Shown here: positions 4,605 to 58,100 of the stretch, one piece after another
Layout of the letters: each line of letters starts with the position of its first letter
How positions within the stretch are numbered: position 1 is the stretch's first letter
NCBI GenBank assembly: GCA_947601655.1
Contig: CANQGG010000005.1
Span: forward strand, 4,309 to 68,308
Direction: 5' to 3'
Length of the DNA: 64,000 nt
DNA from: an uncultured Akkermansia sp.
GTDB taxonomy: Bacteria > Verrucomicrobiota > Verrucomicrobiia > Verrucomicrobiales > Akkermansiaceae
Program-made: the position numbers and the translations under genes
Notes under the pieces: generated by a model
What the model saw: the letters and a program-made list of their open reading frames with translations, nothing else
What the model was told of the DNA's origin: nothing
Database searches by the model: none

Positions 4605-4647
4605 TTCTCCGCCTTCTACGGAGGATGTGGCTTTTATGCCGCTTCAT

Positions 4648-4721
<74 letters not shown>

Positions 4722-4772
4722 TTGACCGTCGTCATTGAAGTTTTCCGCTATCATTGCGACGGTCTTTTCATC

Positions 4773-5129
4773 GGGGGCGCCTCGGTTTCGACCGAACATT
4801 CGAGGTGCCGGCTGCATGTGGGGGTTGATCGGCTGGCCCCCTTACCAAGCCGCTCAAACATTAAGTGCCTATTCCAATAACGAATACGCCATGGCTGCGT
4901 AATATACGCGCCGGATCCCGCGCCTGACGCCCGCTAGGGCGCCGGATCTTCAACTCAGCGAGCAGTCTCTTGCGGGGGGTACCGCCGTTTGAGCCTCACC
5001 AACAGGTGCCTCGCCTTTTCGGAAGTCGGCGCAGAACTTCCGCATTGGCTAAAGCAGCTTCTGCGCCTGAACATGGAGATGCTTGCATCAAAAATGTCCG
5101 GGACAGGGGTTCAACTCCCCTCGCCTCCA
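4773..5129 (+). ncRNA. ssrA: tmRNA; tag reading frame 4867-4902 encodes (A)AYSNNEYAMAA*
   Basis: GGGGGCG...CGCCTCCA acceptor stem with G3-U70, GGTTTCGAC 5' motif, GGTTCAACTCCCC T-arm, short Ala-ending tag after TTAAGT. Confidence 0.93.
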
Positions 5130-55906: not shown

Positions 55907-56530
55907 TTAATTGGTCTCTGCAGCGTTGCTTTCCACAGCGTCGTCACTCACAATTCCAGGAAGATAATTGCCTGTACGCTGCCAGTGATGCAACGCAATT
56001 CCGGCGTAAAACGCTACAATGAAAAGGATGATAACGTACAAGGTCTTTGCCAATCCGCCCCCGGCCCCGGGACGCTTGTATTTAGCCGCCATGGTCTTGA
56101 GTTGCTTGGCATCCAGCGCCGCCCCCTTTGCCGTCGCTGTGCTCCGACGCAGTGGACTCTTCTTCGCGGCGCCGGGTCGTCCGGTTGCCTGCTGCTGCGG
56201 AGCCGTTGCGTCTCCCTGTGGATAAGGCGCATTCGTCTGCGGATCATAACACACCCCGACCGTACCAAGCACGTAATCAACGCCCGGCATCATGTACTCC
56301 GCCTGCACAGGTCTCCCGTTCTGGAAGACCCCATACCCGCTCTGCAGGTCCTCAATAACATACCCTTCCGGCTGACACACCACACGCGCATGAACCGGCG
56401 CTACCCCGGACTCTGCCGGTAATAAAACCGAGCTCGTGGGAGCACTCCCTAGTACGACCTCCGTCCCCGGCTCCACCGGCAACTCAAAAGCGTACACCTG
56501 ATTCTGATTCTTGATGTAGATGCGTGGCAT
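55907..56530 (-). CDS. FHA-domain protein with C-terminal TM helix
   Basis: VLGSAP, VAPVHAR, IEDLQSGYGVFQNG; TM near C-terminus. Confidence 0.75.
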   Translation of the reverse strand: MPRIYIKNQNQVYAFELPVEPGTEVVLGSAPTSSVLLPAESGVAPVHARVVCQPEGYVIEDLQSGYGVFQNGRPVQAEYMMPGVDYVLGTVGVCYDPQTNAPYPQGDATAPQQQATGRPGAAKKSPLRRSTATAKGAALDAKQLKTMAAKYKRPGAGGGLAKTLYVIILFIVAFYAGIALHHWQRTGNYLPGIVSDDAVESNAAETN

Positions 56531-56671
56531 ACTTCTGTAACTCTCCGCCGAGTATACCACAGTCCCCCCCTCCCCTTGCAAGCGCAAATAATCATTCTTT
56601 CCTCATCTCTGCGAGAAAAATAGTCACTCTGCCCTGGAATCTGATCCCCATCGATCCCCTCCAACCGCACA

Positions 56672-56901
56672 AAACGAGCCATGCAGTCGATAAACTGCAT
56701 GACCCAGCCAATCGGGCAAGCGGGATTCTACCCGTCCCTGCTGACCGCTCCGCGGTTTCCCTCGCAGAAGTTTCTGCTCGGCAGCAGGGGCGACGCTCCA
56801 CCGCGTCGCTCCCACTCGGGGTCGTGGGTTCGAATCCCGTAAACAAACGAGCCATGCAGTCGATAAACTGCATGACCCGGCCAATCGGGCAAGCGGGATT
56901 C
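56672..56901 (-). mobile_element. 173-bp non-coding palindromic element at the tRNA-Pro 3' end, bounded by 57-bp direct repeats
   Basis: 56672-56728 and 56845-56901 are 56/57 identical (tRNA 3' 17 nt plus terminator); internal 22-nt inverted tRNA T-arm copy at 56818-56839; mobility is inferred. Confidence 0.65.
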
Positions 56902-56958
56902 GAACCCACGACCCCTTGCACCCCATGCAAGTGCGCTACCAGACTGCGCTACTGCCCG
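56885..56958 (-). tRNA. tRNA-Pro(GGG), CCA not encoded
   Basis: CGGGCAG/TTGCCCG acceptor, CTTGC-ATGGGGT-GCAAG anticodon arm; promoter TTGACA-17-TATACT at 57025-56997. Confidence 0.95.
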
Positions 56959-57056
56959 TTTGAATAGAAAGCCTGAAGAACAAAGCTGACGGACGGAGTA
57001 TAGTGGCGGATTTTGCTGTTGTCAACACATTTTTTTCATGCTAAACTCGCTGCGCT

Positions 57057-58100
57057 ATGAGAAAGGTCAGAACAGCGGTGGTGGGAGCAAGCGGGTACAC
57101 CGGACAGGAGCTTCTGCGGATTCTTCTGCTCCACCCGGGTGTGGAGTTGGTATGCGCCACATCGCGCCAGTACGCCGGGAAGGCCCTCAGCGATGTCTTC
57201 CCTCGTTTTCGAGGGGTCCCCGGTGCAGAGTTGCACTTTGCGGCGGCGGATGCAGCTGCCGTTGCTGCCAGCGGTGCGGAAGCCGCTTTTTTGGCCTTGC
57301 CGCATGGAGTATCGGTCGAATATGGGAGAGCCCTTGTGGAAGCCGGGCTGAGGGTGATCGATCTTTCGGCAGATTTTCGTCTCAATGATCCGGCGATCTA
57401 CGAAGAATTCTACGGCAAACCGCATGCAGATGTTGCATTGCTACGTGAAGCGGTGTATGGCATGCCGGAATGGCATCGCAACGAAATTGAAAAAGCACGC
57501 ATCGTAGGCTCCCCGGGGTGTTACCCCACGAGCATCATCCTGCCACTCGTACCACTGTTGCGCGCCGGTCTTATCCAACCGCAGGAGATTGTGGCATCCA
57601 GTGGAAGCGGCGTTTCCGGCGCGGGTCGCAAGGCGGATGTCACCTACCACTTCTGCGAATGCAACGAGAGCATGCGCGCCTACAGCGTGCCTCGCCACCG
57701 CCATCTCTCCGAGATTGAACAGGAGCTCTCCCTCGCCGCCGGTTGCCCGCTGCGCATTACCTTCATTCCCCATCTCATGCCGGTGAACACAGGGATCCTC
57801 ACGACTCTGGTAGCAAAACTTGCGCCCGGCGCGACGGTGGAAAAAATCGGCGCCTGCTACCGGGAAGCGTACGGGAAGGCGCCCTTCGTGCGTCTGCTGG
57901 GAGCGGGAGTTCCGGCGGACACCAAAAACGTCACCCGCACAAATTTTGTGGACATCGGCTGGGCAGTGGATGATAGAACGGATCGTGCCATTCTGATGAG
58001 CGCAGAGGATAACGTCATCAAGGGAGCGGGGGGACAGGGAGTGCACGCTTTTAACATCATGTTCGGCCTTCCAGAGACCACCGGGCTCATGCTGCTCTGA
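57057..58100 (+). CDS. argC: N-acetyl-gamma-glutamyl-phosphate reductase
   Basis: VVGASGYTG, ALPHG, DLSADFRL, PGCYPT, SGVSGAGR, DNVIKGAGGQ. Confidence 0.96.
   Translation: MRKVRTAVVGASGYTGQELLRILLLHPGVELVCATSRQYAGKALSDVFPRFRGVPGAELHFAAADAAAVAASGAEAAFLALPHGVSVEYGRALVEAGLRVIDLSADFRLNDPAIYEEFYGKPHADVALLREAVYGMPEWHRNEIEKARIVGSPGCYPTSIILPLVPLLRAGLIQPQEIVASSGSGVSGAGRKADVTYHFCECNESMRAYSVPRHRHLSEIEQELSLAAGCPLRITFIPHLMPVNTGILTTLVAKLAPGATVEKIGACYREAYGKAPFVRLLGAGVPADTKNVTRTNFVDIGWAVDDRTDRAILMSAEDNVIKGAGGQGVHAFNIMFGLPETTGLMLL

Follow-up and report, generated by a model that had tools for sequence, protein, structure and literature searches.

Architecture of the tRNA-Pro locus

The window, by which we mean the whole 64,000-nt stretch of Akkermansia DNA that was analyzed, carries an intact tRNA-Pro(GGG) gene followed by a 173-bp unit (Table 1). 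Read in the sense of the tRNA, the order is the tRNA itself, a terminator-like hairpin (T1), an inverted copy of the T-arm, a four-helix core, a direct copy of the tRNA running from the middle of the T-loop to the 3' end, the trailer, and a second terminator (T2). The unit starts 40 nt past tRNA-Pro, and its fold and both terminators lie on the tRNA strand. Its 3' end matches that of tRNA-Pro at 17 of 17 positions, and the match takes in a further 40 nt of trailer and terminator. The core is thereby placed between two minus-strand terminators, and a terminator and promoter scan of the plus strand found neither type of signal.

Table 1. Features of the tRNA-Pro locus and of the unit that follows it (positions in the window)
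Feature	Position	Strand	Basis or remark
tRNA-Pro(GGG), intact, host of the element	56885..56958	-	ARAGORN; Rfam tRNA model, 59 bits
Promoter-like site of tRNA-Pro (TTGACA-17-TATACT)	56997..57025	-	11/12 consensus matches; ~39 nt upstream of the tRNA
Direct repeat, tRNA-proximal copy: last 17 nt of the tRNA (56885-56901), trailer, terminator T1	56845..56901	-	
Terminator-like hairpin T1, immediately after the tRNA	56848..56879	-	Terminator scan
5-nt spacer between inverted arm and repeat	56840..56844		Sequence reading
Inverted copy of the host variable loop, T-stem, T-loop, and first 4 nt of the T-stem 3' strand	56818..56839	+	22 nt, 100%
Helix P5, CCCAC...GTGGG	56811..56828	-	Sequence reading; host tracking counted
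Helix P4, GCGACGC / GCGTCGC	56790..56809	-	Compensatory changes in all 6 pairs
Helix P1 (56736-43 with 56782-89) around hairpins P2 (56744-56) and P3 (56760-81)	56736..56789	-	Covariation, folding
TACCCGT, conserved left end of the core at the T-loop break	56729..56735		GGGATTCTACCCG invariant in 13/13 aligned copies
Spare direct copy of the last 17 nt of the tRNA (antisense on the plus strand)	56712..56728	-	
Direct repeat, distal copy, with second terminator T2 (56675-56706)	56672..56728	-	

An earlier note, made from the sequence alone, had described most of these parts, and every repeat and hairpin on its list is found where it placed them. The two direct repeats are present at 57 nt with one mismatch, and a repeat finder extends them to 62 nt at 95%; as claimed, they consist of the tRNA 3' end plus the terminator, with identity to the tRNA ending at TTC|GAA in the T-loop. 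The repeat finder also returns the perfect 22-nt inverted copy, whose counterpart in the tRNA is 56894-56915. This inverted copy can pair either with that segment or with 56721-56728, in the latter case closing the fold. Of the P5 arms, one is antisense and the other sense to the 5' strand of the host T-stem. At the opposite end of the core, TACCCGT together with the preceding GCGGGATTC mimics a T-arm, the mimic reading GCGGGTA|GAATCCCGC.

The direct repeats are separated by 116 nt, a stretch that folds on either strand. Minimum-free-energy DNA folding recovers the core as the note had drawn it, with P1 around P2 and P3, then P4, and the closing helix CGGGATTC/GAATCCCG, again on either strand. 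The core folds better than expected by chance on both strands (z = -4.3 and -5.4), with none of 200 shuffles folding as well. The internal loop of P3 is a 2x2 TC/TC loop, which on the tRNA-sense strand is a tandem G.A.

One listed feature falls outside the unit. The note had pointed to a GATCCCC-N3-GATCCCC pair at 56643-56659, just beyond the repeats; the pair does exist (2 of 100 shuffles give one), but it is not counted in the element here because it lies outside the conserved unit and is common to same-species contigs only. The two copies, GATCCCC-ATC-GATCCCC, stand ~60-70 nt upstream of the start of an FHA-domain gene (55907-56587, minus strand), and may belong to the upstream region of that gene rather than to the element.

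No hidden tRNA or tmRNA was found on the plus strand of the locus, and an Rfam scan of the locus gave only tRNA matches; weak matches to MIR950, CcsR1, and tRNA-Sec were set aside as noise. The small open reading frames within the unit are merely overlapping random frames, and no integrase is encoded in or beside it. We also rejected the idea that the repeat is multi-copy within the genome, the core being single-copy in the 2.46-Mb assembly to which the window belongs. Elsewhere in the window, a tmRNA gene (4773-5129; tag peptide AYSNNEYAMAA) lies directly after tRNA-Arg(ACG) (4647-4722).

A covarying family confined to Akkermansia

Many genomes of the same genus, for the most part assembled from herbivore-gut metagenomes, have ~70%-identical cores behind tRNA-Pro. 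Thirteen copies were aligned to a four-helix structure as the seed of a covariance model (R1). In this alignment 91% of the helix cells pair, and compensatory changes are seen in 21 of the 26 pairs. Of 101 Akkermansia species genomes, 64 have matches to R1, which number more than 150 in all and reach eight in a single genome. When R1 was run against 301 Verrucomicrobiota genomes, only one of 148 genera, Akkermansia, gave matches, and there were none in the other 147; no core was found in the phage, plasmid, and viral collections. Across 67 distinct model-aligned copies, 92% of the cells are paired and double changes occur in 25 of the 26 pairs, a level reached by none of 500 shuffles and well above slid controls (35-46%).

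Matches to a looser pattern outside Akkermansia (in genomes, viral contigs, and soil and other metagenomes) are attributed to chance, because none of them scores with the covariance model. Outside records labelled Akkermansia, the model scores on only a few metagenome contigs, the majority duplicating contigs of Akkermansia metagenome-assembled genomes, and on L133; the latter, a 'Clostridia' contig from goat caecum, is probably mis-binned. The unit thus belongs to a conserved, covarying family of gene-less modules that is confined to Akkermansia.

Which strand folds, and as what

Watson-Crick pairs account for 1,419 of 1,534 helix cells. On the plus strand, only six cells are G.T, and a further 14 are A.C, so that the tRNA-sense strand would have wobble pairs at those 14. 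That strand also shows a tandem G.A motif, 5'-CGAG-3', at the recurrent 2x2 TC/TC internal loops, and many of its loops are of the GNA or GNRA type. Taken together, the tandem G.A motifs, the loop types, and the 14 versus six wobble-compatible cells indicate the tRNA-sense strand. For an RNA under selection, such a scarcity of wobble pairs is nonetheless unusual. It may reflect a constraint acting on the DNA, or correction of the hairpins through template switching; a young and homogenized RNA family would be the alternative reading.

The almost purely Watson-Crick covariation is what might be expected if the unit were a folded single-stranded-DNA recombination site, like an integron attC or the attP of CTX phage, that delimits cassettes in tRNA-anchored arrays. 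The tRNA-sense strand would then fold as a replica of the duplex from the T-arm to the 3' end, with the core bulging out at the T-loop. The GNA triloops and tandem sheared G.A motifs on one strand are in keeping with such a site, as are the ability of both arms to pair and so rebuild the target duplex, and four arrays with defense-type or accessory genes between copies (see below). However, most copies flank no cargo, and where there is cargo its junctions are ordinary T-loop junctions, not positions within the fold. Nor did our searches, which covered tyrosine integrases, Y1 transposases, and reverse transcriptases, yield a recombinase candidate, and the E. coli counterpart of the unit, discussed below, is known as an RNA. 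We regard a single-stranded recombination site as very unlikely. The conserved motifs are also unlike the R-box consensus of integron attC sites.

Arms tailored to the host tRNA

Among the scored copies, 36 lie 3' of tRNA-Pro(GGG), 17 behind tRNA-Gly(GCC), and nine behind tRNA-His(GUG), and diverged variants follow tRNA-Asp, tRNA-Cys, and tRNA-Ala. Units are single or tandem, with spacings of 168-208 bp from start to start. Except in the Ala-type units, the direct copy in each unit corresponds to the last 14-17 nt of its own host tRNA, and it starts in the T-loop except with Asp and Ala hosts; each copy of the element also has an inverted copy of the T-arm of its own host. The left arm matches the host 3' end for Pro, Gly, and His, and by eye for Asp and Cys. 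The earlier note had asked whether copies at other tRNAs would carry inverted arms changed to match each host; such copies exist at Gly, His, Asp, Cys, and Ala, and it is both arms, not one, that change. Both arms are copies of whichever tRNA precedes the unit.

The order of parts is shared across hosts. In the orientation of the window, the first parts are the antisense host 3' end (lacking in Ala-type units), the core helices P1-P4, and the antisense of the T-stem 5' strand and variable loop. A loop follows, then a sense copy reaching into the T-loop and sometimes continuing through the whole acceptor strand, the spacer, the terminator, and the real tRNA. From this order, the CCCAC that comes directly after P4 is assigned to the host T-stem and not to the core. 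The antisense T-stem is exact in 58 of 60 copies, and the host variable-loop 5-mer has its exact antisense in 31 of 35 Pro copies and eight of ten His copies. Between these two antisense parts, all 60 copies have an un-complemented TC dinucleotide, a feature for which simple copying does not account.

The borders of the duplication vary. Asp-type copies break off where the T-stem meets the variable loop and not in the T-loop; in Ala-type units, which have no antisense 3'-end copy, the repeat boundary is inside the terminator hairpin. From copy to copy, the length of the direct repeat varies between ~10 and 150 nt, and the repeat takes in species-specific terminators; its median of 30 nt means that about half of the copies duplicate the terminator as well. 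As a separate observation, three element copies in two genomes (L192:3280-3480, L192:4030-4330, and L193:3880-4330) have a second structured insert of ~95 nt (AGCCCCCGACGGCTGTAAGGGGG...GAGTGCGAATC) in the P5 loop, between CCAA and AACC, as a small nested element.

Host switching and turnover

A tree of 78 cores places the Gly-linked copies almost in one clade, and the Pro- and His-linked copies interleave, with at least four switches. This interleaving shows that the core changed its host tRNA several times, moving between tRNA-Pro and tRNA-His loci, with the arms re-tailored at each move. His and Pro copies of different genomes are 98-100% identical from GGGATTCTACCCG to GCCCACTCC, and in these same pairs the left 10 nt and the P5 stem are host-specific (CCCC...GGGG for Pro, CAACC...GGTTG for His). 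His copies retain the Pro-type GAATCCCGC beyond the T-loop, a trace of their origin. The cores at other tRNAs, the host-matched arms, and the several Pro/His switches support the claim in the earlier note of a tiny, gene-less, tRNA-associated, non-autonomous element that is able to colonize tRNA genes.

The number of units differs between strains of one species. Contigs with an identical ArgC from other samples have either one unit (L333) or two tandem units (L332), with flanks that are otherwise identical, and an assembly artefact is ruled out by independent ENA assemblies of the same species that have the locus with one or two units. The allele in the window could be derived from the two-unit allele by recombination in the 15-nt start of the repeat; one- and two-unit alleles are compatible with both homologous recombination and site-specific models. 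In three genomes (G009, G013, and G019; loci L046, L047, and L048) the tRNA-Pro site has no unit. We note that four independent assemblies of the window's species (L334-L337) break inside or beside the tRNA-Pro gene, and that one same-species contig begins 2 nt past the center of the T-loop (ACCCACGACCCC...); short-read assemblies are fragmented at tRNA-Pro by the combination of inverted and direct repeats.

The 3' part of the tRNA appears at the locus three times in succession, as a direct, an inverted, and again a direct copy, with two hairpins as the pivots. This arrangement could also be a functionless by-product of a tandem-inversion-duplication that began at the palindromes of the terminator and T-arm and was then homogenized by gene conversion. 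Correction of quasi-palindromes can itself produce a 'covariation' made up of Watson-Crick pairs only, and homologous recombination changes copy number. Such a process does not account for 90-nt cores that are homologous across six different tRNA genes and 64 species, nor for the conserved mismatches and the Pro and His cores that are 98-100% identical across genomes, and we give this origin little credence.

Likeness to the tRNA-linked repeats of Escherichia coli

The earlier note missed a precedent for this kind of element: the tRNA-linked repeats (TLRs, or RtT) of E. coli share its anatomy. The TLRs were described by Egan & Landy in 1978 and by Rudd in 1999 and have been reviewed (PMC8144298); 22 are described at ten E. 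coli loci, most without a known function, and they contain 18-19 nt of the 3' end of the upstream tRNA or rRNA (PMC8144298). Those of the rrn operons (the sRNAs RrA, RrB, and RrF) arise by read-through and have a terminator on either side (PMC8144298). A mobilome preprint reports raised coverage of tyrT-rttR, which it ascribes to RNA/DNA hybrids and not to circles.

At the tyrT-tyrV locus of E. coli K-12, we found 178-bp units, each with a direct 3'-end copy and a 22-nt inverted copy of the T-arm, the inverted copy lying 64-67 nt from the T-arm of the tRNA itself. In the segment inspected (L338; NC_000913.3, 1286700-1287700), the inverted copy of the tRNA-Tyr T-arm is 86% complementary; two papers on TLRs emphasize only the direct 18-19-nt copy. 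In the Rfam consensus of RtT, the two copies form a closing helix around a stem that bears two hairpins, and 9 nt of the acceptor end are left unpaired as a tail. When the unit in the window is folded in the tRNA sense it adopts the same topology of closing helix, two-hairpin stem, and acceptor tail.

The likeness extends to several levels. Both are gene-less units of ~100-180 nt behind a tRNA or 5S gene, often tandem and of similar length (178 bp compared with 173 bp here). In both, the unit ends with the final 17-19 nt of the gene before it, the match beginning in the T-loop, and the direct copy forms a helix with a 22-nt inverted copy of the T-arm, which closes a two-hairpin stem and leaves a 9-nt tail; the rrn members and the unit in the window both lie between two terminators. 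Nevertheless, there is no similarity of sequence or covariance model, so that the likeness is one of architecture and does not demonstrate homology. The RtT model (RF00391, threshold 45 bits) scores 133-138 bits on E. coli tyrT but gives no match to 56300-57200 even at E = 10, which makes the unit a member of a new family of the TLR kind and not of RF00391. Akkermansia belongs to another phylum, and its core has the extra helices P4 and P5. There is direct evidence in Akkermansia of host switching, of copy-number change among strains, and of occasional cargo. The E. coli counterpart is known as an RNA, whereas an RNA product of the Akkermansia unit is putative. With moderate confidence, we interpret the unit in the window as a tRNA-linked repeat of the E. 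coli tyrT kind that represents a new, Akkermansia-specific family.

Other families of repeats are less similar. REPINs and REP sequences, mobilized by RAYT/Y1 transposases, are likewise short, gene-less, hairpin-forming, non-autonomous, and vertically persistent, but the Akkermansia copies are strictly tRNA-linked, are few, and have arms copied from the host tRNA, and Y1 is absent from several genomes with the element, among them the element-rich G054, G106, and G049 and the genome of the window. Islands and cis-mobilizable elements at tRNA genes, such as the tycheposon arrays of Prochlorococcus (bioRxiv 10.1101/2020.12.28.424599) and the ssrA islands of Dehalococcoides (PMC3146451), share with it direct repeats of the tRNA 3' end, arrays that grow at the tRNA gene, and, in some arrays, defense-type cargo. 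They differ in that the Akkermansia unit has 173 bp and no gene, a repeat of variable length, and no cognate integrase that we could find; conversely, its inverted T-arm copy and covarying multi-helix core are not features of att sites. A literature search returned nothing specific on Akkermansia repeats, T-loop miniature elements, or integrase-less tRNA elements.

Cargo and the search for a helper enzyme

The note had proposed that an integrase or a Y1 transposase mobilizes the element in trans. Across the genomes of the genus, the distribution of the element is not followed by that of any integrase, reverse transcriptase, or Y1 transposase, and the proposal is not borne out. A strong Y1 match is found in 37 genomes, 33 of which have the element (odds ratio ~9), but Y1 is absent from 31 element-positive genomes, including the window's own; with Y1 missing from many element-rich genomes, its enrichment is probably phylogenetic. 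A retroelement route (SINE-like and target-primed) was rejected as well, since the distribution of reverse transcriptase is unrelated to that of the element: RVT_1 occurs in 30 of 101 genomes and is absent from the element-rich G003, G021, G054, G096, and G106 and from G000. One group-II-intron-type reverse transcriptase of 506 aa (G049:C33:69030-70365) lies ~600 nt from an element copy, and may be that of an intron inserted beside the hairpins or terminator of the element.

Four arrays have genes between element copies, and no integrase is present in any of them; segments with defense-type or accessory genes lie at L191, L192, L193, and L049. The cargo includes a 689-aa ankyrin protein; Fic with T5orf172; AbiEi with an AAA_15/AAA_21 ATPase with a GmrSD_N nuclease; and an ISL3 transposase, and Sel1 is also found between copies. 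The cargo junctions read as the reverse complement of the tRNA 3' end followed by GAA. In one genome (G054:C37), the gene for a 353-aa tyrosine recombinase stands right after an element copy (L211:1598-2659). Whether or not they have the element, 100 of 101 genomes encode homologues of this protein at 50-60% identity, with as many as 16 in a single genome. Of 30 homologues inspected, 29 lie away from any tRNA or core, and we rejected the protein as a helper because the distribution of its family is unrelated to that of the element. More generally, a family of ~340-aa tyrosine recombinases is greatly expanded in Akkermansia (homologues L213-L241), many with in-frame stops.

These data bear on whether the unit is a minimal non-autonomous integrative element, in effect an attP-only mini-circle inserted and excised in trans by a tyrosine integrase of the T-loop class, with the repeats as attL and attR. 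Direct repeats that equal the tRNA 3' end and start in the T-loop are what such insertion would leave, and the tandem arrays, the junctions of the integrase-less cargo, and the recombinase gene beside the copy in G054:C37 can all be read in its favor. On the other hand, homologues of that recombinase are present in genomes with and without the element and mostly away from tRNAs and cores, and a conventional island at tRNA-Ser in the same genome as the window encodes an integrase but lacks such a core. The length of the repeats, from ~10 to 150 nt with species-specific terminators, does not suit plain integration at the T-loop, as the note had envisaged it. Moreover, in a filled and empty pair (L038 and L046, whose flanks have diverged) the terminator stays beside the tRNA and the insert is distal. 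A jump from Pro to His would also leave a chimeric tRNA, and the host tRNAs are intact. We consider an integrative element of this type unlikely.

A model for spread and expression

Our preferred reading remains that of a TLR-like family, and we propose that the Akkermansia unit propagates at the level of DNA and that read-through probably also yields it as an RNA. At the DNA level, the unit would be a selfish or neutral module, multiplied locally by unequal homologous recombination between long direct repeats. On rare occasions it would colonize another tRNA gene having a similar T-arm, and its arms might then be taken from the new host by template-switching or recombination that pivots on the T-arm and terminator hairpins. 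A dedicated enzyme encoded by the element would not be involved. At the RNA level, the unit would be transcribed in the tRNA sense through read-through of T1, as for the rrn TLRs of E. coli. Because the unit ends with the same 3' end, trailer, and terminator as the tRNA, we propose that its RNA would be matured at the 3' end like the tRNA, giving a structured RNA of ~140 nt. The layout with two terminators would also suit the alternative raised in the note, a read-through RNA that could pair with the T-arm. Two features count against the model: T1 looks competent as a terminator, so read-through may be low, and a second terminator is present in only about half of the copies.

A broader and more speculative reading, to which we attach only a small probability, is that TLR-type units, including both E. 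coli tyrT and the Akkermansia family, constitute a general class of protein-less elements that target tRNA gene ends by base pairing and have their arms rewritten from the target at each insertion. The antisense and sense arms would then serve as a guide that can be rewritten and that base-pairs with an exposed tRNA gene, either as single-stranded DNA or as RNA; the conserved core would provide a host enzyme with a handle or be catalytic itself.

Implications

TLRs have been on the E. coli map since 1978 without an accepted origin or function (PMC8144298). The same architecture is now seen in a distant phylum, built around a core of unrelated sequence. To what is available from E. coli, Akkermansia adds more than 150 diverged copies, strong covariation, and six host tRNAs, as well as filled, empty, and multi-unit alleles and documented host switches. 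In practical terms, the units cause breaks in assemblies at tRNA loci, and they have no annotation in a medically interesting genus. The recurrence of this architecture leaves two alternatives, either a common mechanism that builds such units where tRNA genes have hairpins, or repeated selection for a structured RNA that is tethered to tRNA-processing signals, and the Akkermansia family makes these alternatives testable.
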